Below, piece by piece: positions 857-37,128 of a stretch of 64,000 nt of DNA. Position numbers and translations under genes: made by a program. Below the pieces are notes generated by a model. It did no database searches, was not told the DNA's origin, and saw only the letters and a program-made list of their open reading frames with translations. Source of the stretch: an uncultured Acidobacteriota bacterium (GTDB lineage: Bacteria; Acidobacteriota; Thermoanaerobaculia; Multivoradales; JAHEKO01). The stretch spans positions 136,699 to 200,698 of the forward strand of contig CAVRAU010000023.1 in assembly GCA_963719055.1 (NCBI GenBank), in the 5' to 3' direction. Positions within the stretch are counted from its first letter, which is position 1, and every line of letters begins with the position of its first letter.

Positions 857-1127
857 AGCAGTCCTCCAAAAAGAAAAATAAGGGGTGAAATATGAGTGCG
901 ATTGGAAGCCGAGAATTCGGTCTCCGATGGAGAAACGGGTGGCGGGCAGGTCAGCGCGTGAACTCCCGCCCTGGGGTGACAACGGTGTGTCAAGAGGGCC
1001 ACAATTCGCTTACTCCGCCAGTCCAGTCGAGGCCTGGTTTTTCCCTGTGAAAACAGTCTATACCACCCATTTCCCCTTGGCTACAAGGGTGTCAAGCATT
1101 CATTCTTTTGGATGAAACAGGTGAGGT

Positions 1128-1589
1128 TCAGTCGACCCCGGTAGAGCCGAATCCACCCTCGCCGCGCTGCGTCGATGCGAGCCTATCTCTCTCTGTCAAA
1201 ACAACTTGCGACACCGGTGCCACGACCAGCTGAGCGATACGGTCGCCGCGCTCGAGGCGGAATTCCTCCTGCCCCAGGTTGACCAGGATGACCTTGATTT
1301 CGCCCCGGTAGTCGCTGTCGATGGTACCGGGAGTATTGAGGAGGGTGACCCCGTGGCGCAGCGCCAAGCCACTACGCGGTCGCACCTGCCCTTCCCAGCC
1401 TGTCGGCAGCTCCAGAATCAGACCTGTCGGCACCTGGACACGCTGGCCAGGTGCAACGATCTGCGCGGCTTCGATGGCCGCTCGGAGATCCACTCCAGCA
1501 CTACCAGGCGAGGCGTGCTCCGGCAGAGCCATACCCTGGGCATGGGCCAACCGGAGCACCGGAATGGTGATGGGATCAGTTGCCGCCAC
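1128..1589 (-). CDS. dut: dUTP diphosphatase
   Basis: 153 aa. Motifs 'GSAGVDLRA', 'GLALRHGVTLLNTPGTIDSDYRGEIKVILVNLG' and 'GDRIAQLV' are typical of dUTPase. Last gene of the minus-strand secretion operon; overlaps the upstream gene by 14 nt. Confidence 0.85.
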   Translation of the reverse strand: MAATDPITIPVLRLAHAQGMALPEHASPGSAGVDLRAAIEAAQIVAPGQRVQVPTGLILELPTGWEGQVRPRSGLALRHGVTLLNTPGTIDSDYRGEIKVILVNLGQEEFRLERGDRIAQLVVAPVSQVVLTERDRLASTQRGEGGFGSTGVD

Positions 1590-2304
1590 TGCGATTCGAC
1601 CGCCGTCGTGGATTGCGATTCACCGGACCTTGACCGGACTGCGCCGGGGTATTGCCACCCACCGGGCCCAGACCTGGACGAAAGGGCCGCCCCACCCAGC
1701 GAACGTTCGCCCGGACGGGACTCAGGGTATCTGGTGTGAGGTTGGCGATGGGAACCAGGTCGGCGGTGAATCGCCAGTCACTGTGCTTGCTACCCTCGAA
1801 GAAACTCTTCAGCGCCTCGTCGTCGCTACGGCTGTGCACCCCGACAATCGGTGCCGTGCCCACGGCGGAACGCCGCCGCTGACTCTCACCGCCGAGTTGC
1901 CGCGGACCCGCACCCCCAAAGGTCTGGGGCTGCTGCTCGGGTGCGACCCCGCGGCCCCGACGACCGCGCCGACCCTGCCTCTGCCCTGGAGCGGTCTGCG
2001 CGTAGATCAGTCCCCACTGACCGTCATCCGTCAAGGGATCGGTCCAGAGCTGGCGGATCGAGCGAGGTTTCACTGTCAGCAGCTCTTCGAGACGCAGAGG
2101 GTAACGACCGTTGCGCAGCTGGAAGACACGAATCGCTTCGGCGTACTGCATGCCCCGGAAGATCAGCTCCTCTTCCTTGTCGCGTTGGATGACGTTGCTC
2201 CAAACGGGCATGGCCGCCGAAATGACGACCGCCATCACGGTGAAGATGATGATCATTCCCACCAAGGTGAAACCGGTCTGGGTCGAGCGACGGTTCTCTA
2301 CCAT
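1576..2304 (-). CDS. atypical pseudopilin: prepilin-type N-terminus with Gly at +5, GspG-like core, Arg/Gly/Pro-rich low-complexity C-terminal tail
   Basis: N-terminus 'TQTGFTLVGMIIIFTVMAV' (G^FTLxG instead of G^FTLxE). 'YAEAIRVFQLRNGRYP' resembles the GspG core. C-terminal ~130 aa are RG/P-rich. Confidence 0.6.
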   Translation of the reverse strand: MVENRRSTQTGFTLVGMIIIFTVMAVVISAAMPVWSNVIQRDKEEELIFRGMQYAEAIRVFQLRNGRYPLRLEELLTVKPRSIRQLWTDPLTDDGQWGLIYAQTAPGQRQGRRGRRGRGVAPEQQPQTFGGAGPRQLGGESQRRRSAVGTAPIVGVHSRSDDEALKSFFEGSKHSDWRFTADLVPIANLTPDTLSPVRANVRWVGRPFRPGLGPVGGNTPAQSGQGPVNRNPRRRSNRSGGN

Positions 2305-2726
2305 TCGCTATAAGGAGTTCCGTGCAGACTGATCAACTCCGAACCAGAGTGGACATCGATGATTCCCGGCTGCAAATCTTCGGGGAGATCGGTCTCCGGA
2401 GGCTGCTCCTCCGGGTCCAACTCCTCGTAGACCACCAGCCAGGTATCCGCACTCTTGGTAATCGGATCTCTGGGGACCGCACGAAGATAGCCAGCCTCCA
2501 CCAGGGCCTCCAACGTCGGCGGGTAGTGCCCCTTGTCCCCGTGGAACTGATCGATCACATCGCGGAAGATGTGCAGATTGGATTTCAATACCGCCTCGGC
2601 GCCCCGTCGCGGCACATCCTTGAGCGCCGGCAGGGCGATGGTCGCCAGAATTCCGATCACGGCCACCACGATGATCAGCTCCATCAGGGTGAAACCCGAT
2701 CTCGATCTCGACCTTCTCATCACCAC
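2298..2726 (-). CDS. gspG: type II secretion major pseudopilin GspG
   Basis: 'SGFTLMELIIVVAVIGILATIALP' prepilin cleavage/methylation motif. 'FHGDKGHYPPTLEALVEAGYLRAVPRDPIT' is a GspG signature. 142 aa. Confidence 0.85.
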   Translation of the reverse strand: MVMRRSRSRSGFTLMELIIVVAVIGILATIALPALKDVPRRGAEAVLKSNLHIFRDVIDQFHGDKGHYPPTLEALVEAGYLRAVPRDPITKSADTWLVVYEELDPEEQPPETDLPEDLQPGIIDVHSGSELISLHGTPYSEW

Positions 2727-3196
2727 TCCTTGTAGGGCACCTTGTTCAAGCCCACCCCTTCGCTCAGCGAATAGACATCGAAGACGTTCTCACCTCCCCA
2801 AGAAGTGGAGTCGAAGTCGTCTTGAAAGCTCCGCAGCCCCCACTCGTACTCGCCCGTCATGGGATCTCGTGGAATCCGACGCAAGAACCGCACCTGCTTG
2901 TCGATCTGCCCCACCAGATCCACTCCTTCGACCAACACCTCGATCTCACTTGGATAGCCATCGGTTCCCAGGTCCACCGGGATCAACCCGGCATCGCTGT
3001 AACGTTTGAATTCGTCAATCGCATTCCGCATGGTCCTCAGCGCCAGCCGCAGCTCGATCTCCTTGGCTCTTCTGACAGTGTACTTGGATGCCGGTAAGGC
3101 GACCGCGGCAAGAGTCACGAGAAGAGTCGTGACCAACACCAGTTCCACCATCGTGTAACCAGATCGGTGCCAGGCACGGTGCTCGGAACGAGCCAT
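2720..3196 (-). CDS. GspG-family pseudopilin paralog
   Basis: 'SGYTMVELVLVTTLLVTLAAVALP' (G^YTMVE, Glu at +5). 'RRIPRDPMTGEYEW' is a GspG-like C-region. 158 aa. Confidence 0.7.
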   Translation of the reverse strand: MARSEHRAWHRSGYTMVELVLVTTLLVTLAAVALPASKYTVRRAKEIELRLALRTMRNAIDEFKRYSDAGLIPVDLGTDGYPSEIEVLVEGVDLVGQIDKQVRFLRRIPRDPMTGEYEWGLRSFQDDFDSTSWGGENVFDVYSLSEGVGLNKVPYKEW

Positions 3197-3214
3197 TGCT
3201 TTGGGTTCCTCCGG

Positions 3215-5804
3215 CTAGCCGCGGAGCGGTGGATCACCGCGCTCGGGTGGGTCGGGCCTTTCCGGAGTCTCGAAAGGCTCCGAAGCGCTGCCCTCCGGTC
3301 CCACCTGAATGACCGCTCTCTTCTTCTTCAAAGGCTGGATGGGTTCGAGGGCTCGATCCAGAGCCTTGCCCTTCTCGAACTTCACCACCGCCCGGCCTTC
3401 GGTCAGGGCGCGAAACCGGACAAAAGCCACCGTACCCTGCCCCTGGACCCCTTGACGATTCCCCAGCCGGCTGGCACCGAGGACGATTCGACCCGGCTCG
3501 GAGAACTCGGACAGGAATTGGCTCTCCTTCTTGGAGCCGATGAAATCGCCTGACCAGACATCCAGAACCTGGAGCCGTTTGTCGTTATAGCGCAAGGTGA
3601 TCGGCAGGTGCGACACCTGTTGCGAAGCATCGATCTGGACGGCCACATTGAAGCGGTCGCCAACTCCGACCCTCTTCTTTGTCGGCTGCAGCCGAATCTC
3701 GACAGCCGCCGCGGTCTCGTCGCGGTCGGCAGCCAGTTGTATCTCCGAGTGGCGACCCGGCGAGTAGCTCGCCGGCATGAACAGAGGCCGATGCTGGCGG
3801 CGATAGGAAACCTCGGATGGACCGCCGTCCTCCTCGTCTTCTGTGGCGGGCAACGAGTCTTCAAAAGGATCGAACTCGCGTTGTTCAGGCTCGCCTTCGA
3901 AGAAATCTCGTGGCGTGCCGGGTTCCACTATCTGTTGCCCCGGCAGATCGTCCTCGGTGCCCGTCTCCTCTCCTTGCTCGTTCTGCAGTCCGCGAGGCAG
4001 GTTCTGGATGCGGCGCCGGATCATCTCGCGAATCCTCTCCGCATCTTCGTCGCCACCGTCTTCGTCAAATGGACCCTCCACATCCGACTCCACTCTGGGA
4101 CTACCGCCACGGAAGGTGATATTGGCTTCGGTCCCCACCCAGATGGGCAGTAGGTCCTGCTCATCGATGTTGGCCGTCCGGATGATGTGGGGTGTCATCG
4201 TCAGGATGAGATCCGTGCGGTCCAAATCGGTCCTCTTGTGTGTGAAGAGACGACCGATGATCGGAATGTCCATCAGCCCCGGGATACCGGTATCCGTGGT
4301 CGTCTCATCGGTGCGGATCAGACCGGCCAGGAAGTTGGTCTCACCGTCCTTCAGACGAATATTGGATTCGATCCGCCGAGTGGCAATGATCGGCTGCTGA
4401 CCCCGACTCACCGACAAAACCGGTGATGGCACTGACTTCGACCTTGAGCTTGAGAGTGATCTCCTTGTTGTGGTGAATCCGGGGCTCGATATCCAGACGG
4501 ATGCCGATGTCCTGATACTGGAACGAGGTGATCGGCACGATGTTGCCACCGATGGTATTGGCACTGTTGAAGGTGGTGACCGGGATGGGAACCTGATCCC
4601 CGATGTGAAGAAGCGCTTTCTCGCCATCGCTGATCCTGACCTGAGGACTGGCCAGCAGTTGGGCTTCCGTTCGCTGTTTCATGAAGTCGTAGCTGAAGCT
4701 GGGAATGGTCACCAGCCAATCGCCCTGGTTGATGAACTCCAGATCGGAGACCCGGTAGCCACCGGTGTCGCCGACTTGCAGGGACGGATCGAGGAACTGC
4801 GTGATCTGGTAGTCGCTCAGCAGGATTCCCAACTCCTGGAGTTTCTTGGTGTCGATCTCGAGCAGCTCCACATCCACCACGACTTCGCCGCGGGACTTGT
4901 CATTGGTGCCGATGATCGTCTCGGCCACCTTGACCTTGTCGGCGCTGTCCCGCAAAACGATGGCGTTGAGCTGATCGTTGGCGGCCACGTTCTTGGCTCC
5001 CACCAGGCTGCGGAGCATGGTCATGACGTCCTTGGGCTCGGCATTCGAGAGAAAGAAGGTCTGGATCACCAGATCCTCGTAGGCGCGACGATTCTGGGGC
5101 GTATCCTCGACCACTATGATGGTGTGCTCGTCCAGCACCTTGTAGAAGTGCTTGGACGTCCGCATCAGGATTTCGAGAGCGTCCTGGGCGTTGACGGATT
5201 CGAGCTCGATGGCGATCTCTTGATCGCGCAGCTTGGGATCGAACATGACGTTGATGCCAAAGGCCTTACCCAGTGCCAGATAGATGTCCTGGACCGACAC
5301 GGGACGGGGAAAGCTCAGGGAGATCGGTTCTGCAGAGCGGGGATCGAGCACCGGCGGCTGGGCTCTGGCGCCTCTGGCGGCCTCTTTCATTTCCGCCAGC
5401 GTCAGGTCTGGATCACCGCCTCTCTCGGTGACAGCGATGTCTTCCATGACCTTCTCGAGCTCGACACGGGCGTACTGGTTGGTAGGGTCGAGCTGCACCG
5501 CCTGCCTGTATTCCTCCAATGCCCGGTCCAGAGCCTCTGCTTCGTGCAAGAGTTTGGCTCGCTCGAAGTGCATCTGCGAGGCCTTGAGCTTGGCCCGCAG
5601 CAGACCCGTCTGATAGGAGACGTTGTTGGGATGGTTATCGACGAGCTCCAGGTACTGCATCACCGCTTGATCCCAGTCTCCTTCCTGTTCGGCTACCTGC
5701 GCCTGGCGAGAGGTGTTGTAGCCCGAGCAGCCCATGAGGGCTGCGAGAGCCATGACGAGTGCCATGCTGAAACCGCGGAGTCGGTGCCTTCGCATCGCCC
5801 GCAT
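3215..5804 (-). CDS. gspD: secretin (GspD/PilQ family) lipoprotein with ~340-aa C-terminal acidic linker + cohesin-like domain; one apparent frameshift at ~4400
   Basis: Start 'MRAMRRHRLRGFSMALVMALAALMGCSG' (lipobox LMGC). N-domains follow. Secretin domain 'QVRISDGEKALLHIGDQVPIPV...DIGIRLDIEPRIHHNKEITLKLKVEVS' continues in another frame as 'QQPIIATRRIESNIRLKDGETNFLAGLIRTDE...GIPGLMDIPIIGRLF...ILTMTPHIIR'. C-terminal extension covers 3215-4177. Confidence 0.85.
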
Positions 5805-5805
5805 C

Positions 5806-6399
5806 TTATCCTCCAATCTCCAATCGCTGGGCTGGAGCCTCGGGAAACCCGACAAAGCCCAGATCGGCTGACTCCATTCCTATCTTCACCAAAACGAATT
5901 TGTCCTTCAAGATGTCCCCCTCCGGGACATTGAAGATCTCACTGCCGTCCGTGAACACCGCCAGCCGCCGACGGCCATTGCCAAAGTTGCCCAGATACAC
6001 CACGTCGATGGCGGGTGGCCTCGGCGCCGGCGGCCGGACGGGCGCCGTGACCTCGGTCGTTCGACGCTGGCGAGCCTCTTCGATCCTCTGGCGAAGATCC
6101 GACTCCGTCGGCTTGGGTCGCGGAGGAGGCTCGGGACGACCTGCCTGAAACGGATCTCGGCCTTCGCTGAGCGCTTCGGTCCCCATCACGAGCGCACTCG
6201 AATGCAGCTCCTCGACTTCCGGCAGCGTCGTTCTCCAATCCTGCTCGGCCAGACCCGTGGTGCGACCGCCAGACGAGCGACCACCCGAACCGCTGAAGCT
6301 ATCCACCGAGAACAACGAACCGAGCCGTCGTCCTGCCGCGATCACGAGAATCAAGGCGAGAACGGCCAACAGGGCTTGTTGCTTCTGCTTCTTACTCAA
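5806..6399 (-). CDS. PilP/GspC-like inner-membrane lipoprotein-type secretion component
   Basis: Single N-terminal TM 'ALLAVLALILVIAA', Pro-rich linker and C-terminal beta domain 'IDVVYLGNFGNGRRRLAVFTDGSEIFNVPEGDILKDKFVLVKIG'. Sits between the pilO-like gene and the secretin. Confidence 0.55.
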   Translation of the reverse strand: MSKKQKQQALLAVLALILVIAAGRRLGSLFSVDSFSGSGGRSSGGRTTGLAEQDWRTTLPEVEELHSSALVMGTEALSEGRDPFQAGRPEPPPRPKPTESDLRQRIEEARQRRTTEVTAPVRPPAPRPPAIDVVYLGNFGNGRRRLAVFTDGSEIFNVPEGDILKDKFVLVKIGMESADLGFVGFPEAPAQRLEIGG

Positions 6400-6402
6400 C
6401 GC

Positions 6403-6982
6403 CTAGGCCTCTGCGCTCTCAAGATTGTCCAGGAACAACGTCGAGACACTGATGCGTACCCGAACATCCGTGCTTTTACCGCCTGTCTCGCTGACTCCTA
6501 TCTCGTCGAGGATCAAGAACTGCTCCGAGCGCTCGAGGGCATAGATGAATCGCCGCAACTCCTTGTAGCTGCCCTCCGCCGAAAACACGATGGAGCGGCG
6601 CACGAGCTCGAACTCCTCCAGCGCCTCGTCAGGGTACCGAAAGCCCGATGCTTTCACACCCGCGGCTCGTGCCATGGTCTTGACCTCGGCGATCACCTGG
6701 GTCAGCCGGTCGGCCTCGGAAGACAACCACCGTCCATAGAATTCCTCTACCCGAAGCCGATTGGTTTCGGCCTTCGCCCAGACGTCATCCAGAGCGGCCC
6801 GGTGCGCCTGCAATTCGGCCAGCGTGGTGCTCAGCCTCTCGACTCGAGACAAGCGCAACTGGGTCTGTCCCGCGAGCAGAAACCGGTACGTCGACAACAC
6901 GCCCAGATTTGACGAGCAGCAACAACAGACCCGGGAGCCAGAGCTTCAGCATCCGCCGCCACACCACTGCCGAGCCGATCAT
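6403..6982 (-). CDS. PilO/GspM-like membrane protein (apparent frameshift ~6905)
   Basis: ATG at 6982 gives TM 'VVWRRMLKLWLPGLLLLLV'. Frame then switches to 'LSTYRFLLAGQTQLRLSRVERLSTTLAELQAH...' (coiled-coil plus periplasmic domain). Sits between the pilN-like and pilP-like genes. Confidence 0.5.
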
Positions 6983-7656
6983 CCGTCACCCCCCGCCGAA
7001 TCGGTTGCCAACGCCGCCTCTTCGACCGCGCTTTCCGCCGTCTCGGCACTTTCCTCGGGCATCACTGAGGGTAGGTAGAGAACGTTGAGATTGAACTCCA
7101 GATGGCCGTCGTCTCGCTGGTTCTCTCCCATGAGATTCGGCAAGGTGAAACTCGAATGATCGAAGAGGTTGTCCACGAGCTGCAGCAGCTCCTCGGTTGT
7201 CTCGGCGCTGCCTTTCATATCGATGGCGATCAGATCCTGAAGGCGTGGATTCTTCGGCTTACCGCGACGCTCCTTCGAGGTTTTCGGCGATACCCGGTGC
7301 AGCTCGACGTTGGCTGGCAGAACCTCCTCCAGGCGATCGAACAACCGGCTCCAGGAAAACGTCCGGCGGGCGATCTCCTCGTTCAGGAAGACCACCTCTT
7401 CGTTCTGCTCGTCGAGATGCAGAGATGCGAGGTCAGCTTGCCCCTGCTTGATCGCTTCCTCCTCTGCCCCGATCTGCTCCTGCAGGCTCCTGATGGTTTG
7501 CCGCTGCTCGTTGTGAGCCGCAAGGTGGCGTTGATAGAGAAAGATGTTGATCGCCAACAGGGCCAGCGCCAGAATCCAGATCAAGAGCGTAGTCCGCTTC
7601 ACCGGTCGCTCATTGGCGAACGGTTGCGCAGCGAGATTGGGCCCCATGGTCCTCAT
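6979..7656 (-). CDS. pilN: PilN-like (GspL periplasmic-half homolog) assembly protein
   Basis: ATGA overlap with pilM at 7653-7656. 'GPNLAAQPFANERPVKRTTLLIWILALALLAINIFL' (INLLP-like N-terminus plus TM), then a periplasmic domain. Confidence 0.65.
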   Translation of the reverse strand: MRTMGPNLAAQPFANERPVKRTTLLIWILALALLAINIFLYQRHLAAHNEQRQTIRSLQEQIGAEEEAIKQGQADLASLHLDEQNEEVVFLNEEIARRTFSWSRLFDRLEEVLPANVELHRVSPKTSKERRGKPKNPRLQDLIAIDMKGSAETTEELLQLVDNLFDHSSFTLPNLMGENQRDDGHLEFNLNVLYLPSVMPEESAETAESAVEEAALATDSAGGDG

Positions 7657-8651
7657 GCGACCTCCTGCCTGGCGGCACCCAGCAAGGTTGCAACCTCGCA
7701 TAGGGGCACCTCCGTGCCCGCCGTGCTCAGAGGCAGATTCTCCAGGCGCAGGGGATGGGCCGCGAGGCCGAAGCCGCCAGCCAGCCACCCGAGCCACCTC
7801 TCTTCGATCTCCCGGGGCCCGATGAGCAGGAGACGTCCGATCTCGCCACCTGGAAACTGCTCCCCCAGGTACATCTTCGTCAGCTTCAGATCGCGTTCCA
7901 CCAGTTGTTGCGGGGGCTCGTCACCGGCCATCTGGGGCAAGGCCTTGAATCGATGCAACACGGGTTCGCCGTGGAGCACGAACGTCAGGCTGTAGCCCCG
8001 CGTCGACACGAAGGCCACGGCGCCCAACTCCACACCGCTGAGAACATCCCGAACCGCGGAGAGCAGGGTCAGACTCTCGCTCGAGATGTATCCCAGATGA
8101 ATCCCGCGATCCTCGAAGACCCCTTCCAGTTGCCTCAGGAGCCCTTCCAGTCCAAAACCCAGCAGCACACGACCGTTCCCAAACCTGTTTCTGGGAGAAG
8201 TCATGGTGCCGCGAACCCGCAGCTCCTCGACTCGGAAGGGCACCGTTCTTTGCAGCTTCCACTTCAGGACCTCCTCCCGGGCCTCGCCTTTGCGAGGCAA
8301 ATCCTCACTTTCGACGAGAGCGATGCGCAGCCAGGGATCCGGCAGGATCAGTGAACCCTCTTGCACCTCACCCTCCATGCCTTCCTGGAGCTCGGCCACC
8401 GCCGACCGAAATCTCTCCGGATCGTGGATCGGACCGCCGACGGGTCCGGCTGCAAAGAGATCGGGATCGAGATCCACGGCTTGATAGTCCGCCAGCTCAT
8501 AGCCGAAACTCTGGCGCTCGAAGCGGGCAAAGCGCAGCTGGGTCTCGTCCACGGAGAAGACGGCCGGTGGTAACGGCATCGGCTCCAGGCCAAAGAACCT
8601 CTTAGTCCACGAAGGTAACTTTATTGATCTCACGTAGCGTCGTGACTCCAT
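7653..8651 (-). CDS. pilM: PilM-like actin-fold cytoplasmic assembly protein (GspL cytoplasmic-half homolog); start may be at 8579
   Basis: 332 aa. 'VLLGFGLEGLLRQLEGVFEDRGIHLGYISSESLTLLSAV' and 'AVAFVSTRGYSLTFVLHGEPV' have an ASKHA/PilM-like pattern. Sits between gspE and pilN. Confidence 0.65.
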   Translation of the reverse strand: MESRRYVRSIKLPSWTKRFFGLEPMPLPPAVFSVDETQLRFARFERQSFGYELADYQAVDLDPDLFAAGPVGGPIHDPERFRSAVAELQEGMEGEVQEGSLILPDPWLRIALVESEDLPRKGEAREEVLKWKLQRTVPFRVEELRVRGTMTSPRNRFGNGRVLLGFGLEGLLRQLEGVFEDRGIHLGYISSESLTLLSAVRDVLSGVELGAVAFVSTRGYSLTFVLHGEPVLHRFKALPQMAGDEPPQQLVERDLKLTKMYLGEQFPGGEIGRLLLIGPREIEERWLGWLAGGFGLAAHPLRLENLPLSTAGTEVPLCEVATLLGAARQEVA

Positions 8652-10251
8652 GAAACGCCCGCTCCAGCGCGGACTCCCGCAGAAAGACCATGCCCTCTTC
8701 CTTGGCCGCCCTCTTGATCTCCGATGCCGGGCGGCGATCCAGAATCAGCTCGCGGATCCGATCGGAAAGATCGAGCAGCTCGGAGATGGCCGATCGGCCG
8801 AGGAACCCGCTGCCGCTGCATTCGAGGCATCCCCGGCCTTCGTAGAACGGATGGTTGGCATAGACATCCGGGTCGAGCCCGCTCTCGACCAGCAACTCCC
8901 GGGAGACCTCGGCCGGTCGCCGGCAGTTGGTGCAGATCTTGCGCACCAACCGCTGCGCCAGGACACAGTTGAGCGCCGAAACGAAGTTGTATAGATCCAC
9001 ATTCATGTTCAGAAAACGTCCCAACACATCGACGACGTTGTTGGCATGCACGGTGGTAAAGACCAGGTGACCGGTCAGGGCTGACTGCACCGCGATCTGC
9101 GCGGTCTCGACGTCTCGGATCTCACCGACCATGATCTTGTCGGGATCGTGTCGCAGAATCGAACGCAGACCGCGAGCAAAGGTCAGACCTTTCTTCTCGT
9201 TGACCGGTATCTGCGTGATGCCGCGAAGCTGATACTCGACAGGATCCTCGATGGTTACGATCTTGTCCTCCGAGGACTGGATCTCCGACAAGCACGCGTA
9301 GAGGGTGGTCGTCTTACCGGAACCGGTGGGACCCGTCACCAGAACCATGCCGTAGGGCTCGCGGATGAACTTGCGAATCTTGTCGATGGTGCCGCCGTCG
9401 AGACCGAGAACATCGAGCCGCAGGTTCTTGAACTCCTTGCTCATCGACTCCTTGTCGAGGATTCGGATCACCGCGTCCTCGCCGTGCACCGATGGCATGA
9501 TGGAGACTCGGAAGTCGATGTTTCGCCCTTCGAACCGGAGCTTGAACCGACCGTCCTGCGGCACCCGTTTCTCGGCAATGTCCAATTCGGACATCACCTT
9601 GATGCGGCTGATGATCGTCTGGTGATGCCGCTTGTCGATGGGCTCCATCGCTTGGTAGAGAACGCCATCGATGCGGTACTTCATGATGACTTCCGACTCG
9701 CGGGTCTCGATATGGATATCGCTGGCCCGCCGCTGAATGGCGTTGAAGATGGCGGAGTCCACCAACTTGATGATGGGACTACTGTCGGTCGTAATCCGAT
9801 CGAGGGAGAGGATCTCTTCTCCATCCGAATCCTCCTGAACCAATTGCAGGCGGAAATCCTCCGTTGCCTCGTCCAGCACCCGCTGGGCGCTCTCCGACTT
9901 CTGCAGGATTTCCTCGATCGCCGAGCGCGCGCCGACCCGCACCTCCAGGGGTTGGTTCAGCAGCAGCTCCAGCTCGTCCTGCTTGGTGACATCGCTGGGA
10001 TCCGACATGACCACCGCCAGCCGGCCAGCCAATTGGCGATCCGGAATGAACGAATAGCGCAGCATGAGATCGAAGGGAATCGAGCGCAGCAGGTCGTTGT
10101 CGATCCTGAACCGGCTCATATCCACCAACTCCAGACCGAGACGCTCGGCCAGCACCGCCGCCTCCCGTTCCTCTCGCTGCTGCTTCGCTGCGAGCTCTCC
10201 TGCTGCGTCAACCAAGGCGATGGGGCTGTTCGGGGAATCCAGATTCATCAC
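8602..10251 (-). CDS. gspE: type II secretion / type IV pilus assembly ATPase (GspE/PilB family)
   Basis: N-terminal T2SSE_N-like domain. Walker A 'GPTGSGKTT', Asp box, His box 'HLVFTTVHAN' and tetracysteine 'CTNCRR...CLECSGSGF'. ATGA overlap with gspF. Confidence 0.9.
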   Translation of the reverse strand: MMNLDSPNSPIALVDAAGELAAKQQREEREAAVLAERLGLELVDMSRFRIDNDLLRSIPFDLMLRYSFIPDRQLAGRLAVVMSDPSDVTKQDELELLLNQPLEVRVGARSAIEEILQKSESAQRVLDEATEDFRLQLVQEDSDGEEILSLDRITTDSSPIIKLVDSAIFNAIQRRASDIHIETRESEVIMKYRIDGVLYQAMEPIDKRHHQTIISRIKVMSELDIAEKRVPQDGRFKLRFEGRNIDFRVSIMPSVHGEDAVIRILDKESMSKEFKNLRLDVLGLDGGTIDKIRKFIREPYGMVLVTGPTGSGKTTTLYACLSEIQSSEDKIVTIEDPVEYQLRGITQIPVNEKKGLTFARGLRSILRHDPDKIMVGEIRDVETAQIAVQSALTGHLVFTTVHANNVVDVLGRFLNMNVDLYNFVSALNCVLAQRLVRKICTNCRRPAEVSRELLVESGLDPDVYANHPFYEGRGCLECSGSGFLGRSAISELLDLSDRIRELILDRRPASEIKRAAKEEGMVFLRESALERAFHGVTTLREINKVTFVD

Positions 10252-11464
10252 TCAACCGATCCAAGAAGACTGAAAAGAGGTAGATACACCGAAATCAAGA
10301 GTGTGGCGATGATGATGCCCATGAGGACCAACATGACCGGCTCCAGCAGGCTCAGAACCCGCTGCAGACGCGTCTCCACTTCCTCATCGAGAAAATCCGA
10401 GACATCGGACAGCATGACATCGAGCGATCCCGTCGCTTCGCCCACCTCCACCATGTCGACCAGAATCTCCGGCACCGCTCCCGTGGACTCCAGGGTCTCG
10501 GCCAGGGCTTTGCCCTCACGCACCGAATCGGTGGTTGGAGCCAGCTGCCCCCTGAGATGGAGATTGCTCACCGCTTTGACCGACACCTCCATCGAGCTGA
10601 CCAGAGGAATCCCTCCGGCCAACAGGGTGGACAGGGAACGGCAGAACTCCGACAGCGCCAGACGGTGGAAGAGCGTCACCCAGGAAAGGGATCTGTGAGC
10701 AGCAGTCGAGAGAGCGTCAGACGGCCAGTCTCCGAGCGCGCGTACTGCAGAAAGGCGACCGTGCCGACGACCAGGACGATCAGGATCACCACGATATGTT
10801 CCTTGACAAACAGCGAGAAGCCCATGGTGATCTTGGTCACCAGCGGCAGATCCACGTTCAGCGTCGAGAAGAAATCGGTGAAGTTGGGCAACACAAAGAC
10901 GGTCATCACGGCGATCAGACCCAGGGAGAGTCCCACCAACGCCGCCGGATAGACCATCGCCGATGTCACTCGTTTGCGGGTCTCCAGCTCCAGCTTGAGA
11001 TGGCGCACGAATCGGCGGATCACCTGTTCCATCTCACCGCTGCGTTCGCCGGCCTTCAGGGTCGCCGGATAGAGACCGGGAAATCGATCACCGTAGGCCG
11101 CAATGGCGGTCGACAGATCCTCTCCGCTTCTCACCTGATCGCGAACCTGGGTCAGGATCTGTTTGAAGACCGGGTTGCGCTGGCGGGAAAGCACCAGCTC
11201 GAGGGCCTGCAGCATCGGTAGACCCGACCGCAGCAAGGCAGCCAGCTCCTGATTGAAGATCATCAGATCCCGCGGACTGATCTTCTGGTTCCGTGCCCCG
11301 AGGGTCGGGAGCCGCAATCGCCCCATCAATCCCCGACGACGAATCTCGAACAGATGATAGCCCTGGTTGGTGAGATCCTTCTTCAGCGTCGTCTCGTCAT
11401 GGGCTTCCATCACCTCTTCGATGACCTGTCCCGTCGGAGTTCCCAATTTGCAGATGAATTGCAT
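10248..11464 (-). CDS. gspF: inner-membrane platform protein GspF/PilC family (apparent frameshift ~10680)
   Basis: N-terminal piece 'QFICKLGTPTGQVIEEVMEAHDE...LPMLQALELV...' and C-terminal piece '...SLSTLLAGGIPLVSSMEV...LLEPVMLVLMGIIIATLLISVYLPLFSL' are both T2SSF repeats. Combined ~405 aa. Confidence 0.85.
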
Positions 11465-11471
11465 TCGACTC

Positions 11472-12290
11472 TCAGTTCTCCGACAACCGAGCGACAGATT
11501 CATCCGCGGCGTAGGTCAGGAGCAACCACAGCTGCTCCTCGTCCTCGTCGGCCGGCGTCACGCCAACAATCAGGGGGGAATTGGGCAATGGCTGCAAGTG
11601 GGCGCTGAACAGAGCGACCTCGCCTTGTTGGTCAGAGTGCAATAACTGGAAACTCCTCAATACCGGGCCACCCATCGATATCTCTCCGGGCCAGCTGAAC
11701 CGAATTCGGTACCCGTGTCCCAGATCGCGGTCCACCCTTTCGCCCGCGTGGGTAGCGATCTCCAGGTGAGAAACCGTGTGCAGGGTCGGAGATCTCGACA
11801 GATCGGACACCCGCGTGGATCGCGCCAACTCCACCTGCAGCTTCACCACCGCACCGTCGATGGCGGCTCGCGGAACGTTCACCAGCCCGGAACCGACTCC
11901 GACGGCTCCCGCGAACGGGACCTCTTCAGGAGTCTGTCGCTCCGAGCGCATGGGTATCAGGACAATGGCCATCAGCACCATGGCGGCGAGGGCACCCACC
12001 GCCAGACCTCGGCGAGACCAGGAGGCCTCCATGGCTCGCACCCGCCGCATGGCCTGCACCGTGCGCCGAATCTCCTCGATTTCCCCTTCCTCGATCTTTT
12101 CCTCCGGTAGCAAGGAAAAGACCACTGTGGGATCCGCCTCGGCAGCAGCCCGGCGACAAGAGGGACAGCCCTGGAGATGGATCAAATACTCCTCGCGTCG
12201 AGACCCGGCCAGCTCATCGACGCTCTCGGCCCGAAGCAGATCCCGCCAGCGGGCACAGCTCACTGGATCGGCCCGCCCTGATCTGTGCAA
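11472..12290 (-). CDS. zinc-binding anti-sigma factor (HxxxCxxC), single TM
   Basis: 'IHLQGCPSCRRAA' ZAS-type motif. TM 'LAVGALAAMVLMAIVLIP'. Lies immediately downstream of the ECF sigma and overlaps it. Confidence 0.65.
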   Translation of the reverse strand: MHRSGRADPVSCARWRDLLRAESVDELAGSRREEYLIHLQGCPSCRRAAAEADPTVVFSLLPEEKIEEGEIEEIRRTVQAMRRVRAMEASWSRRGLAVGALAAMVLMAIVLIPMRSERQTPEEVPFAGAVGVGSGLVNVPRAAIDGAVVKLQVELARSTRVSDLSRSPTLHTVSHLEIATHAGERVDRDLGHGYRIRFSWPGEISMGGPVLRSFQLLHSDQQGEVALFSAHLQPLPNSPLIVGVTPADEDEEQLWLLLTYAADESVARLSEN

Positions 12291-12841
12291 TCCCAGCCTG
12301 TGGGGGCGTACTCTGGATAGCGTCGCACCAACTCTTGGCGCAGATGCTTGCGCGCGGCAAACAGGTGGTTGCGGACCGTCGAGGCCTTGCAGCCCAGAAT
12401 CTGGCCCACCTCGTCCGATCCCAGTCGCTCGACGCCTGCCAGCAGAAACACCAATCGTTGCCTCTCGGTCAAGCCCTCTGACAGACGTTCCAGAATCTCA
12501 GTGACTTCCCGGTCCCCGAGATCGGCCAGCGTCCGAGCTCCCGGATTCTTGAGACTCCTCAGGTGGGTCCCCAGGGGTCGCAAGGCCTGCTCCCGGGTCC
12601 GGCGCCAGCGCACCTGGTCGATGGCGAGGTTGACGGCGATACGGAAGATCCAGGTATTCGGACTCCACCGGGTATCGAAACTCTGTCGTTTCTCCCACAC
12701 CCGCAGAAAGACCACCTGAACGATATCTCGCGCCTCCTCCCGATCCCGCGTTATGCGTGTGACCACTTGCAGGAGGGGCGGTGTTTTGCGACGGATCAGC
12801 TCGTCGAAAGCCCTCTCATCACCGTCCTGCACCGCAGTCAT
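12260..12841 (-). CDS. RNA polymerase ECF (sigma-70 family group IV) sigma factor
   Basis: 'ERAFDELIRRKTPPLLQVVTRITRDREEARDIVQVVFLRVWEKRQSFD' is region 2. The region 4 HTH is 'LTERQRLVFLLAGVERLGSDEVGQILGCKASTVRNHLFAARKHLRQ'. Confidence 0.85.
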   Translation of the reverse strand: MTAVQDGDERAFDELIRRKTPPLLQVVTRITRDREEARDIVQVVFLRVWEKRQSFDTRWSPNTWIFRIAVNLAIDQVRWRRTREQALRPLGTHLRSLKNPGARTLADLGDREVTEILERLSEGLTERQRLVFLLAGVERLGSDEVGQILGCKASTVRNHLFAARKHLRQELVRRYPEYAPTGWDCTDQGGPIQ

Positions 12842-13173
12842 GACCTCGGTGTCCGCGGCTGCGGTCCAGGATTGCTGCGGACGTGAAGTGTAGAGGTGAA
12901 AAGGCACGTGTATCCCTATCTCGATCGACAGTCGATCAACGGTTCATACGGCCGTCGATCCGGCATCGTCTATGCATCTCGCGAATCGCCGAAGCTCTGC
13001 CATCGGTGATCCCACCCGGCGGCTTCCCGAAACACCCGTACGATGACGATTCTGTGAAGATAGAATGCACGTGCGCCGGGAAGAAACACCCGACCGCGGG
13101 CTCGCAACGGGCAACCGCCTGTGGCCGATTCGATTATACGGGACAGGTGCCCTGTTGCCTTGTTGCAAATTCC

Positions 13174-14457
13174 ATGTGGTTCCTCTACCAGATTGCCACG
13201 ACATGTGTCTTGTTGGTTGTCGGGCCCTTCCTGCTGCTCCGTCGCGGCCGGCACTATCTGGGCAGCCTGCCGGGGCGTCTGGGCCGCTACACCGGCGAGG
13301 CTCCCGACGCTCCCTTGTGGGTTCACGCCGTGTCCGTGGGTGAGGTAGGAGTCGCTCACACTCTGATTCGGGGTCTGCCCGCGCATCTGCCTCTGCTGAT
13401 CACCACCGTGACGCCCACGGGTCAGGCACTGGCCAAGCGCTTGTTCAAAGATCGCGCAGCCGTCGCCTATCTGCCTTTCGATCTGGGACCCATCGTCGAG
13501 AGATTCCTCGACCACTACTCCCCCAGAGCGCTGGTCCTCGTCGAGGGCGACCTGTGGCCGCTGTTGCTCTCGCGGGTCCAAGCGCGCGGGCTTCCCATCG
13601 CCGTTGTCAATGGTCGGGTCAGTGATCGTAGCTTTCGGCGCATGACCCGGCTCGAGCCCCTTCTCGGACCGATCTTCGGACCTGTGGACCGGTTCGGCAT
13701 GCAATCAGAAGCGGACCGTAAGCGGCTCCTAGATCTCGGCGTGCCCGCTGAACGAGTTGTGGTTTCCGGCAATCTGAAGTTCGAGACACCGACTCAAAAG
13801 GCCAAGCCGGAACTGGCTGAAGCCATTCGGAACCTGGCTGCGGGTAGGCCCATCTTGGTCGTGGGTTCTACCATGTCGGGGGAGGAAGAGGAGATTTTGG
13901 CGGCTTTTCGACAGATCGGAGGTGGGAAAAGAGCCCTACTCGTGCTGGCTCCCCGTCACCCTGAGCGCTGGAACGAGGTTGCGGCGTTGGTGCAGGCAAG
14001 GGGGCAGTCTCTGACCCGACGCACGGATCTGACCGCCGCCTCCGCGGCCACAGACATCTTGCTCCTGGATAGCCTCGGTGAGTTGGCGGCGATCTATGAA
14101 GTGGGCCTCGGCTGCTTTATCGGTGGCACGCTGGTGCCCACAGGGGGGCACAACCCGCTGGAAGCGGCGCTGCACGGTGTGGCCATCAGCGTCGGTCCGT
14201 CGATGGAGAACTTTCGCGAGATCGCCGCCGCTTTCGAGAGCGGCACCGCCTGGCAACAAGTTGTCAGTACCGATGAATTGGCCCAGGTCTGGAATACGTG
14301 GATCTCTGAACCGGAAGAAGCCGCCGCGCTCGGTAGAAGAGGATTGAGCGTCGTCGCGGCAAACCGGGGTAGCCTGCGGACCACGACAGCCCTGCTGGAG
14401 TCACTCGTAGATCTGGGAGCTTCGAACGACCCCATCCCATCGGATACATCATCGTGA
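13174..14457 (+). CDS. waaA: 3-deoxy-D-manno-octulosonic acid (Kdo) transferase
   Basis: 428 aa. 'LWVHAVSVGEVGVAHTLIRGL' and 'GGHNPLEAALHGVAISVGPSMENFREI' are KdtA family signatures. Confidence 0.85.
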   Translation: MWFLYQIATTCVLLVVGPFLLLRRGRHYLGSLPGRLGRYTGEAPDAPLWVHAVSVGEVGVAHTLIRGLPAHLPLLITTVTPTGQALAKRLFKDRAAVAYLPFDLGPIVERFLDHYSPRALVLVEGDLWPLLLSRVQARGLPIAVVNGRVSDRSFRRMTRLEPLLGPIFGPVDRFGMQSEADRKRLLDLGVPAERVVVSGNLKFETPTQKAKPELAEAIRNLAAGRPILVVGSTMSGEEEEILAAFRQIGGGKRALLVLAPRHPERWNEVAALVQARGQSLTRRTDLTAASAATDILLLDSLGELAAIYEVGLGCFIGGTLVPTGGHNPLEAALHGVAISVGPSMENFREIAAAFESGTAWQQVVSTDELAQVWNTWISEPEEAAALGRRGLSVVAANRGSLRTTTALLESLVDLGASNDPIPSDTSS

Positions 14458-28616: not shown

Positions 28617-30180
28617 GGTTTAGCTCCATTTGCCGGCTCGACCAAGGGATAACGAGTCCAAGGGGTCCTGTACACCACCAGGACATCTCCGGCCATGGTG
28701 ATGTTGTTGGCGATCGGAATCTCGTGGACCGCCTGGAAAGCGGAGACGTCGTCGATGAGCCGGTCCAACCAGTTGGGAAAAATCACCAGATAGTCTGGCT
28801 TGTAGTGTTCCAGAAAAGCGACTGCGCCCCAGGTCTTGATCTCGGGATTGGCAATACCCGCCAGATCGACGACCTGGTTGGGAAGCAGGTACTTGATGGC
28901 ACCGATATCACCCACACCCAACACCGCCTCGGGCGGCAATCGGTGGGCCAGCCAGCGGGCGGCCCTGACGTCACTGTCCTGGACATTGACGACTCCTTGG
29001 GCGTAGCGACCCGCACCCTGGGCCAGCTCCGTCAGGGTCGGCGCCAGGAGAACCAGAACCGCCAGTAGGCGGAGAGGGATCCGCAAGAACCCTACCTTGA
29101 CCCACCTGGCGAGTCGCCGGGCGACGGGCTGCACGGCCAGAATTCCCAGGATGACCACGATGGGAAAAAGCGGAAAGTAGTAGCGGCCGAAATTCCCCAC
29201 AAGGCTGTACTTACCCGGCGGATCGATCAGACCGTAGGCGAACGGCAGACCAAAGAGCCAGAGAATCGGCAGCAGTCCACGGTTCCTTCTGGGTCCCCAG
29301 ATCGGCGAGAAGAATCAGGGCTCCGGCAGCGGCGAACAGAGCCATCCAGGGCTGTGCCTGGAAGAAGATCCCGAACACTGTATACAGATAGCCCATCTCC
29401 GGCAGCCACCGAGCCAGCCCTCCCGACTTGGCTCCAAATGTGGTGGGCAAGATCGATCCGGTGACTGAGAGATTGAAGACCAAGACCGGAGCTACGATCA
29501 CCGCGGCGATCGCCAATCCGACAAGCAGATCTCGCCACCGCGGCGGGTGCCAGGTCCCCTGACCATCCGCCCCGAGCCGAAATACCAGCAGCCGGTCGGC
29601 GACCGCCGCCAAGATCAGCAATGCCGCCTCCGGACGAGCCAGAAAGCCGAGCGCCAGGATGGGCAGCGACACGGGAATGCGCGCGGGATCTCGACGCTCC
29701 TGGATATGGAACAGAATTCCCGCCAGACTGAGGACGATGAACAGCGAGATCTCCAGACCCGGACAGCGCCGACCAGACGAGCCAGGAAGTCGCGAGGGTC
29801 ACCGCCGCGGCGAGGTTCGCCGGCCAGGGGTCCAGCCCCAACTCTCGTGACAAACGATAGGTCACCACGCCGCCGGCCAGATAGAGGACGACGCCGAAGA
29901 GCTTTGTCCAGAAGAGCGGATTGCCGGGTAGAAAAAAGATCAGGGACAGAAGGGCTGTCCACAGCGGCGCCGTCGAGCCGGGCACCAGCACCTCTGGATT
30001 GAACGAGAGACCGTTGCCGGCAAAGAGATTGCGAGCAAACTGCAGGTGGATCCAGCTGTCGTCGAGGGGAAACCCCAACTCGCCTCCGAGCAGATAGATC
30101 TCGACCACCAGATAGAAGAGACAGGCTGCCAGACCGAAGACCAGACAACCTAGCCAGATCCTGCTGTCTCTACTCCCCAT
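28613..30180 (-). CDS. ArnT/PMT-like (GT39/GT83-type) polytopic membrane glycosyltransferase; at least two apparent frameshifts
   Basis: N-terminal 'LGGELGFPLDDSWIHLQFARNLFAGNG...PLWTALLSLIFFLPGNPLFWTKLFGVVLYLAGGVVTYRL'. Middle and C-terminal pieces lie in other frames. ATGA overlap with the DegT gene. Confidence 0.55.
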
Positions 30181-30304
30181 GGCAGCGCCCGGATTCAAGT
30201 TGTCCGTTTGTGAAGGCTCCGATCTCTCCGCTCCAGACACCGGGTAAGGATACACAAACAATCGTCCCGGGAACGACTTTGCCGATGCTAAGATCGCGCC
30301 GCGC

Positions 30305-31854: not shown

Positions 31855-31909
31855 GAAAGGGTATTCGAGCGAAGCGGAAACACTAACTGTTACAGAGGAG
31901 TGAATGACT

Positions 31910-32458
31910 ATGATGCGACTCATGAGACGACGGGGCCAAAAGGGTTTCACCCTTATCGAGCTCCTCATCGTGGTTGCCATCATCGGCATCATCGCTGCGA
32001 TCCTCATCCCGAACCTGCTGGATGCTCTCCAGAAGGCGAAGCAGAAGAGGACCGTTGGTGATATGCGTGATGTTGGTGCCGCCTGGTTCTCCTGGTTGAC
32101 CGACCAGGTGGGCGCAGCCGCCGCTGGAAGCACAGCCAAGACGTACAGCCTTCCTGGATCTTCGGTGACTGGAGATACTCTTCTCCAGACACTGTATCCG
32201 AACGACAACATGTTCTACATTCAGGAAGTGCCGAACACGGACGGTTGGGGTGGCCCTATTGAGTACTGGTACTCGGGCAACCCGCTCTCCGCCCAGGTCA
32301 TGGCGGTCCGCAGCTTTGGTCGTGACGGCACCGCCGGACCGAACGGTTCCGGAACGCCTACACCATGGGGCCCTTCCTGGCCTCGGATTACGATCAGGAC
32401 ATCGTCTGGGCCGACGGCTTCTTCGTCACCTACCCAGCAGGTGCCAAGATCGACTGAC
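31910..32458 (+). CDS. type IV pilin / pseudopilin (PilA-like) with prepilin N-terminus; probable frameshift near 3' end (~32360)
   Basis: 'RRRGQKGFTLIELLIVVAIIGIIAAILIPNLL' is a classic class III signal. The alternative-frame tail '...DYDQDIVWADGFFVTYPAGAKID*' ends at ~32458. ATGs at 31904, 31910 and 31913 are all possible starts. Confidence 0.85.
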
Positions 32459-32478
32459 GCTTTCACTCTCTGAAAGCA

Positions 32479-36361: not shown

Positions 36362-37128
36362 GTCCATCTTCTTCCTGCTCTGGGTGGGACTGGTCGGCCT
36401 GGTTGTCGGCAGCTACCTGAACGTCCTGATTCACCGGATTCCCCGGGGAAAGTCAACAGTCCTGCCCCGCTCGAGATGCCCCTATTGCCAGGGACCCATT
36501 CGGGCCAGGGACAACCTGCCGGTTCTGAGCTTCCTCATCCTGCGCGGACGCTGCCGCCACTGCCGGGCGCCGATCTCCTGGCGCTACCCGATCATCGAGG
36601 GCCTCACCTCCATCCTTTTCGTGGCGAGTCTTCTCAAGTTCGGAATCAGTCCGAGCCTGGTCCATGCACTGGTCTTTTCATGCTTGATGGTATTGCTGGC
36701 AGCCATCGACATGGAGCACTTCCTTCTCCCTGATCGCCTCACCCTGCCCGGCATCTTCGTCGGCCTGGGGCTGCAGCTCTGGGCTCCGATGCCGGGATTG
36801 CTCGATGCCGTGGTCGGCACCGCTGGTTGGCGCCGGCATCCTGATTCTGGTCATCAACTACTGGTACTGGTGGCGGGGTGAGGAGGGCATGGGAATCGGG
36901 GACGTCAATATGCTGGCACTGATCGGTGCGTTTCTGGGCTGGCAAGGTGTCTTGACGACAATCGTCCTGGCGACCTCGAGCGGGGCGCTGGTGGGGATCA
37001 GCATGCTCCTGGCCGGCCGCCTCGGCATGCGCTCGCGGTTGCCCTTCGGCTTCTTTCTGGCCCTGGGTGCTCTCCTGACCTTGTTCTTCGGCGATCTGCT
37101 GATCGCCTACTACAGCGGGTTGCTATGA
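36351..37128 (+). CDS. pilD: prepilin peptidase / N-methyltransferase (A24 family) (apparent frameshift ~36815)
   Basis: 'LPRSRCPYCQGPIRARDNLPVLSFLILRGRCRHCRAPISWRYP' is the tetracysteine zinc motif. Polytopic TMs. The A24 catalytic region 'GMGIGDVNMLALIGAFLGW' lies in a second frame. Confidence 0.8.

Follow-up and report, generated by a model that had tools for sequence, protein, structure and literature searches.

The stretch of DNA discussed here, called the window throughout, comprises 64,000 nucleotides (nt) from an uncultured, soil-type bacterium of the phylum Acidobacteriota, class Thermoanaerobaculia (assembly GCA_963719055.1, contig CAVRAU010000023.1). Between positions 1128 and 12907 it carries thirteen genes, all on the minus strand, which in our moderately confident reading form one Thermoanaerobaculia operon: a conserved promoter of the extracytoplasmic function (ECF) type would drive an ECF sigma factor and its anti-sigma factor together with a complete type IV filament machine, whose genes follow the layout annotated as Pul in Pelobacter carbinolicus (PMC3543383). 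The evidence comes from the packing of the genes, their conservation in relatives, a sharply defined promoter motif and the make-up of the machine.

A tightly packed array of thirteen genes

Open reading frame (ORF) calls, Pfam and NCBIfam searches and a comparison with relatives give the gene order ECF sigma, zinc anti-sigma, gspF, gspE, pilM, pilN, pilO/gspM-like, pilP-like, secretin, three pilin-like genes (G1, G2 and G3) and dut. An earlier sequence-only reading of the same DNA had spoken of a twelve-gene operon; its order and its tight packing hold, while the genes in its own list number thirteen. The array and its predicted promoter are laid out as follows.

12947..12972, minus strand: candidate ECF-type promoter, TAGACG-N15-CCGTA (-35 TAGAC, -10 CGTA)
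12260..12907, minus strand: ECF sigma factor, 215 amino acids (aa), identified by Pfam and NCBIfam
11472..12263, minus strand: zinc-finger anti-sigma factor, 263 aa, with an HxxxCxxC motif and a transmembrane segment
10248..11464, minus strand: GspF/PilC/PulF-type inner-membrane platform, with T2SSF domains; frame broken
8602..10248, minus strand: GspE/PilB/PulE-type assembly ATPase, 548 aa, identified by Pfam T2SSE and MshEN
7653..8579, minus strand: PilM-type actin-fold protein, 308 aa, assigned by predicted fold
6979..7656, minus strand: PilN-like bitopic protein, 225 aa, assigned by a weak Pfam PilN match and its position after PilM
6403..6982, minus strand: PilO/GspM-like bitopic protein, identified by Pfam T2SSM_b; frame broken
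5806..6399, minus strand: protein in the PilP/GspC position, 197 aa, assigned by position and phylum-wide conservation
3215..5804, minus strand: secretin lipoprotein, about 863 aa, identified by Pfam domains and a lipobox; frame broken
2720..3196, minus strand: pilin-like G1, 158 aa, prepilin motif G/YTMVE, Glu5 present
2298..2720, minus strand: pilin-like G2, 140 aa, Pfam N_methyl, motif G/FTLME, Glu5 present
1576..2304, minus strand: atypical pilin-like G3, 242 aa, motif G/FTLVG, no Glu5, Arg/Gly/Pro-rich tail
1128..1589, minus strand: dUTPase (dut), final gene of the array, identified by Pfam and NCBIfam

Start codons were refined by alignment with relatives before the junctions were measured. 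All 12 junctions then fall between -14 and +22 nt, negative values being overlaps: sigma/anti-sigma -4, anti-sigma/gspF +7, gspF/gspE -1, gspE/pilM +22, pilM/pilN -4 and pilN/pilO -4 (both ATGA), pilO/pilP +3, pilP/secretin +1, secretin/G1 +18, G1/G2 -1, G2/G3 -7 and G3/dut -14. Among the junctions that the sequence-only reading had given as ATGA overlaps or gaps of a few nucleotides, gspE/pilM proves to be no overlap; at 22 nt it is the widest intergenic gap. The sigma gene had been taken to start at 12841; position 12907 is most likely the true start, judging by an N-terminus (MPFHLYTS...) that aligns from residue 1 with relatives, among them the closely related metagenome contig L081.

Conservation across the Acidobacteriota

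A GspE scan of species-representative genomes yielded 80 loci, and the window proteins were mapped onto them. Almost every locus carries the label Acidobacteriota, and one that of Acidimicrobiia. Thirteen species loci represent the Thermoanaerobaculia (L001-L012 and L075), L014 comes from a gp22 genome, and L081-L084 are closer metagenome contigs. A divergent kdtA(-) followed by the order from sigma to dut is conserved in 13 of the 13 Thermoanaerobaculia genomes with enough flank, and the same synteny recurs in the four metagenome contigs; dut follows G3 in L001, L003, L005, L006, L008, L010, L011 and L075. The relatives that retain this arrangement have sigma factors that are only 45-57% identical.

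Elsewhere in the phylum the picture changes at the upstream end. Vicinamibacteria, Terriglobia and Bryobacterales keep gspF-gspE-pilM-pilN-pilO(-pilP)...G3 without a sigma gene upstream, so that the machine is phylum-wide and the ECF head a lineage-specific addition. The gp22 genome provides the one locus outside the Thermoanaerobaculia with both sigma and anti-sigma. In L017 a histidine kinase and an OmpR-type response regulator (4835-7153) lie upstream of gspF, in the position of the ECF pair. The protein in the PilP position is conserved across the phylum, and G3 is the pilin-like gene most widely kept beside the machine, standing after pilP in most of the 80 loci. A literature search found no description of this acidobacterial system.

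A predicted promoter and a probable single transcript

Alignment of the regions upstream of sigma reveals a bipartite motif, T[AG]GAC[GA]-N15-CCGTA[T/A/G][A/G]A, i.e. T[AG]GAC-N17-CGTA, outside of which these regions are unalignable between distant relatives. We take its -10 core, CGTA, to resemble the Bacillus SigW-type ECF promoter consensus. The motif occurs once in the window, at 12947-12972 on the minus strand, with 39 nt between its end and the sigma start codon; shuffled sequences would yield 0.04 occurrences. Of 17 related loci that bear sigma, 16 have the motif upstream of the sigma gene and on its strand, and in those with an aligned start 16-41 nt separate its end from the start codon. 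Scored with a position weight matrix (PWM), true sites reach 26-36 bits, and no other position in the window and 1.42 Mb of loci (1.48 Mb in total) exceeds 15.7 bits. A second match to T[AG]GAC-N17-CGTA, in front of the Secretin_N protein gene of L004, was dropped at a PWM score below 14 bits.

In the gp22 locus no motif was seen upstream of the sigma gene. Its motif (7067-7092) lies after sigma and before the anti-sigma gene, the Secretin_N protein gene and gspF (region 6421-8640), so that the predicted target is the machine side and not sigma.

A scan of positions 900-13400 for sigma-70 promoters and terminators gave nothing above shuffle expectation, and no sigma-70-like site falls between sigma and gspF or within the anti-sigma gene. 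The gap between anti-sigma and gspF measures 7 nt in the window and 12-27 nt in relatives. A further intergenic promoter would not fit here, and transcription would run on from the ECF pair into the machine; the short gap, the lack of a second motif and the lack of a sigma-70-like site all fit one ECF-driven transcript. We infer that the ECF pair and the machine genes are co-transcribed. The earlier proposal of an operon headed by the ECF pair thereby gains support from the 13/13 synteny, from gaps of at most 22 nt and from the single conserved ECF-type motif.

A second conserved element, (A)GTATAAT, was observed at about 13133-13139 on the minus strand and at the same place in L001-L011, L075 and L081. 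In the loci inspected it lies about 65-160 nt upstream of the ECF motif, near the divergent kdtA start. Read on the kdtA strand it becomes TATAC(T/G); it may be a -10 box for kdtA with a short leader or a housekeeping promoter facing sigma.

Components of the machine

Scores were read against the curated NCBIfam equivalog cut-offs (GspE 630, GspF 424, GspD 351, GspG 88.85; PilB 675, PilC 700, PilQ 284). Classification by hidden Markov models, which the sequence-only reading had named as a check, leans to the Gsp models for ATPase, platform, secretin and pilins, in every case below cut-off. Each fragment of the broken gspF holds one T2SSF domain, and the repaired protein scores 303.7 bits with GspF and about 255 with PilC; its relatives are single intact ORFs of 403-415 aa. 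The ATPase combines Pfam T2SSE (423 bits) with an MshEN N-domain and carries Walker A and CxxC...CxxC motifs. Its NCBIfam scores are nearly level, 523.6 for GspE versus 522.2 for PilB, and among solved chains it comes nearest to Geobacter PilB (430 bits), followed by Myxococcus PilB (406) and Vibrio GspE (361). The c-di-GMP-binding motif of MshEN domains is an RLGxx(L/V/I)... repeat; judged by eye, the N-domain here does not contain it.

The PilM-type protein has no Pfam or NCBIfam match, yet its AlphaFold2 (AF2) model (mean predicted local distance difference test score, pLDDT, 89.4) finds Pseudomonas aeruginosa PilM (5eoy, E 1.4e-19) as its best Foldseek hit. Thermus thermophilus PilM (2ych, TM score 0.76) and Myxococcus xanthus PilM (3jc8) are further matches, and cyto-GspL/EpsL matches more weakly (E 3e-10). 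More distant members of the family carry PF11104 PilM_2. On the predicted structure, the protein is PilM by fold. As in type IVa pilus machines, this modelled actin fold comes with a separate gene, joined by an ATGA overlap, for PilN, its putative binding partner. The PilN-like protein itself matches Pfam PilN at E 9.8e-4, below the gathering score, and its L081 orthologue shows a weak PF05137 PilN match. The PilO-like protein reaches 24.2 bits with T2SSM_b (cut-off 21.7) and 28.6 bits with GspM_XpsM, the latter below cut-off; in L081 and L083 its orthologue is an intact protein of 192 aa. The protein in the PilP position consists of a transmembrane segment, an RDPF motif, a Pro-rich linker and a C-terminal beta region, the last three of which we take to resemble PilP. 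When its profile was run against PDB sequences only low-complexity Pro-rich regions matched, and its identity as PilP or GspC stays positional. As a description, the earlier assignment of the GspL, GspM and GspC roles to a split PilM and PilN, a PilO/GspM-like and a PilP-like protein is sound.

The secretin starts with a lipobox (LAALMGC), followed by a TPR module, N-domains (Secretin_N), the Secretin domain, a long acidic linker and a C-terminal cohesin (window 3215-3700; Pfam 34.7 bits, cut-off 24.1). Its NCBIfam scores descend from GspD (167) through PilQ (106) to MshL (93), all below cut-off. In L081 (11034-13616) it is an intact protein of 860 aa with the cohesin. Most close relatives share the cohesin, which in L010 and L012 is either lacking or has diverged too far; the window revealed no dockerin-like partner for it.

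The three pilin-like proteins score between 20 and 44 bits on the GspG model. G1 (27 bits) is 62-74% identical among Thermoanaerobaculia relatives. G2 (44 bits) has as its closest solved chains the N-domain of a Geobacter pilin (40 bits) and GspG (31.5 bits), and G3 gives weak N_methyl and GspG matches. Of 19 parsed relatives, 17 have a residue other than Glu at position 5 of G3, whereas G1 and G2 keep Glu5; among the pseudopilins of type II secretion systems (T2SS), loss of Glu5 is typical of the tip subunit GspK. To call these proteins GspG-type was an overstatement, given the cut-off of 88.85 and an unrelated pilin at 31904-32473 that scores 51.8. The final gene is dut (Pfam dUTPase 111 bits; NCBIfam dut 202.6 bits, cut-off 103).

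GspE, GspF, GspD and GspG all stay below the equivalog level of a canonical T2SS, no operon protein matches GspC or a fused GspL, and the operon holds no GspH, GspI, GspJ or GspK next to its three GspG-like genes. The Pil models do not fare better at family level for PilB, PilC, PilO, PilP and PilQ: the protein in the PilO position matches GspM models, and the one in the PilP position matches none. Tblastn found no second GspE/PilT-like ATPase in the 64-kb window, in line with the earlier remark that PilT is missing there.

The gene order equals that of Pul. In P. carbinolicus the order pulF-pulE-pulM-pulN-pulO-pulP-pulQ (a secretin lipoprotein)-pulG-oxpG is annotated twice, as Pul-1 and Pul-2 (Pcar_1685-1678/3311 and Pcar_0130-0138), according to the Pul description in PMC3543383. 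That source also places a third Pul pseudopilin, TklG, beside DNA-metabolism genes, keeps the Pul genes of Desulfuromonadales separate from the genes that it lists for type IV pili in the same genome, and presents Pul as a Geobacteraceae system needed for secretion of the multicopper protein OmpB, a finding it attributes to Mehta et al. 2006 (PMC3543383); in Geobacter sulfurreducens this is the OxpG system. The 'hybrid' of the sequence-only reading is not supported as a new combination, its layout being the Pul layout already described there.

The ECF pair and the periplasmic beta domain

The sigma factor matches Pfam Sigma70_r2, Sigma70_r4_2 and Sigma70_ECF and exceeds the cut-off of the NCBIfam sigma70-ECF model TIGR02937 (89 bits versus 42.9). 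It has sigma-70 regions 2 and 4 only, as befits an ECF (group 4) sigma factor; the directly downstream cognate anti-sigma gene and the predicted autoregulatory ECF-type promoter are likewise as expected for this group. The anti-sigma start overlaps the sigma stop (GTGA). Its sequence contains HLQGCPSC, an instance of the N-terminal HxxxCxxC that marks zinc-binding (ZAS-type) anti-sigma factors, and a single transmembrane segment; H29, C33 and C36 are invariant across 19 homologues, and the Pfam zf-HC2 match is weak (E 0.021).

In most Thermoanaerobaculia two genes lie between sigma and gspF, namely a shorter zinc-finger anti-sigma gene and then a gene for a secreted Secretin_N protein. The extra gene is present in L001-L010 and L012 (for example L004 7820-8563 and L012 8041-8724). 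In the lineage of the window, one 263-aa protein joins the zinc finger and the transmembrane segment to a periplasmic beta domain, and alignment pairs the C-terminal half of this protein with that of the separate Secretin_N protein. Of the Secretin_N protein, the window lineage thus keeps just the C-terminal half, fused to the anti-sigma factor. The 21 homologues found measure 171-266 aa at 60-97% coverage, and because most of them have 262-266 aa (87-97% coverage) the fusion is not an assembly artefact. Residues 140-252 are modelled by AF2 at a pLDDT of about 85-90. Pfam and profile scans of the anti-sigma factor show no FecR domain, which sets it apart from cell-surface signalling of the FecR/PUMA3 type, where a FecR-domain anti-sigma factor is paired with a receptor resembling TonB transducers.

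How the operon might work

A periplasmic or envelope cue would act on the anti-sigma beta domain and release sigma, which would transcribe its own operon and, by this positive feedback, turn on the machine as a whole. A short pseudopilus would then be polymerised from G1 and G2 by the ATPase and the platform, with G3 presumably as its cap or primer. This pseudopilus would work through the secretin, either in the export of folded proteins or in the display of short fibres. Gene content, order, packing and conservation, the PilM fold and the promoter motif are the observed part of this account; co-transcription, the signal and secretion rather than pilus function are inferred. The homology of the beta domain with the C-terminal half of a secreted protein that bears Secretin_N invites the speculation that sensing and the secretin are linked. 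Extended further, the domain might monitor the machine's own secretin or pseudopilus, the ECF pair might act as a checkpoint on assembly or activity with feedback to the expression of the Pul-type machine, and the secretin cohesin would dock exported proteins at the cell envelope; we put this forward as a long shot.

A second pilus gene set in the window

A further set of pilus genes, missed by the sequence-only reading, lies on the plus strand at 31.9-46.6 kb.

31904-32473, plus strand: stand-alone pilin GFTLIELLIVVAIIG, GspG model 51.8 bits over 125/134 profile positions
36285-36881 and 36688-37125, plus strand: prepilin peptidase (Peptidase_A24), split over two frames
37125-38864, plus strand: histidine kinase within the set
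38963-39727, plus strand: GspH/FimT-like gene, in a PilV/W/X/Y1 context
39721-40329, plus strand: PilV-like gene
40272-41683, plus strand: PilW-like gene, broken
41686-42252, plus strand: PilX_N protein
42285-46565, plus strand: PilY1-like protein, in at least 5 pieces

Because the stand-alone pilin outscores G1-G3, GspG matches below threshold do not separate T2SS from pilus subunits in this phylum. The set may belong with a separate type IVa pilus (T4aP) whose other genes lie elsewhere; alternatively, the machine of the operon may draw its priming pilins and peptidase from it. Near it, at 47315-49294 on the minus strand, a sigma-54 activator is fused to a FecR domain. The window contains no Rfam families and no tRNAs.

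Frame breaks

Relative to L081 and L083, four breaks occur in the operon, each a 1-nt insertion: two in gspF (about 10680-10712), one in the pilO-like gene (about 6915), where it costs the N-terminal membrane segment, and one in the secretin gene (about 4395), where one ORF matches positions 2-87 of the Pfam Secretin profile and a second ORF positions 88-169. All three genes are single intact ORFs in all relatives, none of which has the insertions. Split genes are found window-wide (64-982, 29227-30363, 32542-33934, 33693-36357, 36285-37125, 40272-41683 and 42285-46565), including an Oar-like TonB receptor (64-982), the prepilin peptidase with its Peptidase_A24 domain over two frames and the PilW- and PilY1-like genes. 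The window looks indel-rich, like an uncorrected long-read assembly, and the breaks in the operon are insertions with respect to Illumina-assembled relatives. Since the relatives are intact and other genes of the window are split likewise, the four breaks are most likely sequencing or assembly indels.

Weighing the explanations

Several observations weigh against an ECF-driven Pul-type operon. No component reaches the curated GspE, PilB, GspF, GspD or GspG cut-off, every machine component scoring below threshold, and the likeness to Pul spans two phyla and consists of gene order and annotation only. Two proteins are without recognisable relatives: the one in the PilP position has no Pfam or NCBIfam match, and for the periplasmic anti-sigma domain the PDB offers no match with E < 0.001. 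As a sequence pattern, the motif marks a predicted promoter rather than a mapped start; it is missing in L012, and promoters may also lie inside coding sequence. The frameshifts, if real, would mean a dead machine in this strain. Finally, among solved structures PilB resembles the ATPase more closely than GspE does, and a full T4aP-type set of minor pilins, PilY1 and PilD lies 20-35 kb away; on both counts a true pilus function is conceivable.

That the operon is decaying in this strain, with real frameshifts in gspF, pilO and secretin and a non-functional machine, seems very improbable to us. The four breaks do all fall in machine genes within 11.7 kb, and none was seen in sigma, anti-sigma, gspE, pilM, pilN, kdtA, lpxK or waaF. 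Yet each is the insertion of one base, at least two fall within short homopolymers (AAA, GGGG), the broken genes retain 83-88% protein identity to L081 (74% in the C-terminal part of the secretin) and have no in-frame stops or larger lesions, and many unrelated genes of the window are split in the same way. A different objection concerns the head of the operon: sigma and anti-sigma might be a mere conserved neighbour, autoregulated and with targets elsewhere, the machine being run from housekeeping promoters in the anti-sigma gene or downstream. This would suit the sigma-free machine clusters outside the Thermoanaerobaculia and gp22, the lineage with a two-component pair instead and the extra gene between anti-sigma and gspF in most relatives. 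We nevertheless think it unlikely: the gaps in front of gspF leave no intergenic promoter space, the anti-sigma gene has no sigma-70-like site, the window offers no second ECF motif and hence no other local target, the gp22 motif stands directly in front of the anti-sigma gene, the Secretin_N protein gene and gspF instead of sigma, and the arrangement has persisted while sigma itself diverged.

The strongest challenge is to the function of the machine, and we give it an appreciable though minor chance. The operon would encode a type IVa-like pilus assembly (PilB-PilC-PilMNOP-PilQ) that makes real surface pili with the pilin at 31904-32473, the FimT/PilV/PilW/PilX/PilY1 proteins of 38963-46565, the peptidase at about 36285-37125 and a PilT encoded elsewhere, and the shortness of acidobacterial pilins would have produced the 'GspG-like' labels as an artefact. 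A fold nearer to PilM than to cyto-GspL, an ATPase whose nearest solved structures are Geobacter and Myxococcus PilB, the lack of GspC, GspL and GspI/J/K in the operon, the T4aP-type cluster in the same window and the higher GspG score of its unrelated pilin all speak for it; the TPR module of the secretin, as we see it, also recalls PilF/Tgl pilotins. The two possible roles of the second pilus set keep this reading alive. Opposed to it are the PilM, PilN and PilP models, which give no or sub-threshold matches, the match of the PilO position to GspM models, the lead of GspF and GspD over PilC and PilQ and the lack of PilT in 64 kb. In addition, the three pilin-like genes of the operon sit where pulG and oxpG do in the annotated Pul clusters, which the same source lists apart from the pilus sets of Desulfuromonadales genomes (PMC3543383). 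An ECF-headed Pul-type operon with a probable role in secretion is the account we prefer.

Implications

Soils and sediments are rich in Acidobacteriota, a phylum that is difficult to culture and whose secretion machinery has received little study. The layout that the phylum-wide gspF-gspE-pilMNO(P) cluster shares with Pul of Geobacter and Pelobacter gives it a name and one experimental anchor. In the Thermoanaerobaculia, the cluster gained an ECF head with a sharp promoter motif, which amounts to a regulon prediction: one sigma, one promoter, one machine. Two additions call for an explanation, the secretin cohesin and the sensor domain common to the anti-sigma factor and the Secretin_N protein. 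Current views of type IV filament systems are not overturned.

Comparison with known systems

With the type IVa machines of Myxococcus, Thermus and Pseudomonas the operon has in common the PilM fold, the split into PilM and PilN and an ATPase nearest to solved PilB. It differs in PilM, PilN, PilO and PilP proteins that fall below or outside the Pil models, in a secretin that scores lower with PilQ than with GspD, in the lack of PilT in the window and in having its own short GspG-like subunits. A canonical T2SS (GspC-O) shares a homologous ATPase, platform and secretin, pilin-like subunits and a GspM-like protein, and Gsp models rank first in NCBIfam for F, D and the pilins; the differences lie in the sub-equivalog scores and in the lack of GspC, of a fused GspL and of GspH/I/J/K in the operon.

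ECF control of such a machine had been called unusual, which goes too far. In P. aeruginosa, vreA-vreI-vreR lies directly upstream of the hxc T2SS, and overexpression of the sigma factor induces hxc (PMC2729926). This PUMA3/Hxc arrangement likewise encodes an ECF sigma and a membrane anti-sigma factor immediately upstream of a T2SS cluster (PMC2729926). The likeness is one of analogy only. Hxc, a T2SS, has genes named in a nomenclature of their own (hxc), and VreR is of the FecR type and works with the receptor-like VreA, whereas here an HxxxCxxC anti-sigma factor carries an unrelated beta domain.

Pul of Geobacter and Pelobacter comes closest. As far as its published annotation goes (PMC3543383), it matches the operon in the gene order F-E-M-N-O-P-Q-G-G, in the replacement of GspL, GspM and GspC by proteins named after PilM, PilN, PilO and PilP, in a lipoprotein secretin, in two or three pseudopilins without GspH-K in the cluster and in neighbours from DNA metabolism (dut here; polA, recO and comM in Pelobacter). 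A phylum-wide PilM profile search returned no Geobacter or Pelobacter protein among the named matches of the best 120 of 453; those named are acidobacterial (PilM_2 family). The third pseudopilin lies inside the operon here, whereas TklG in the Pelobacter annotation falls outside the run from pulF to oxpG, elsewhere for Pul-1 and three genes upstream of pulF for Pul-2. The secretin here has a TPR module and a C-terminal cohesin, and the operon is headed by an ECF pair and its predicted promoter, of which none is listed directly beside pulF in the compared passages of the Pelobacter table (PMC3543383). With a layout already annotated in Pelobacter and, in the same source, also described for Geobacter, the ECF-headed variant is only moderately new; what is novel in it is the fused sensor domain, the cohesin-bearing TPR secretin and the Thermoanaerobaculia-specific ECF head with its promoter motif.

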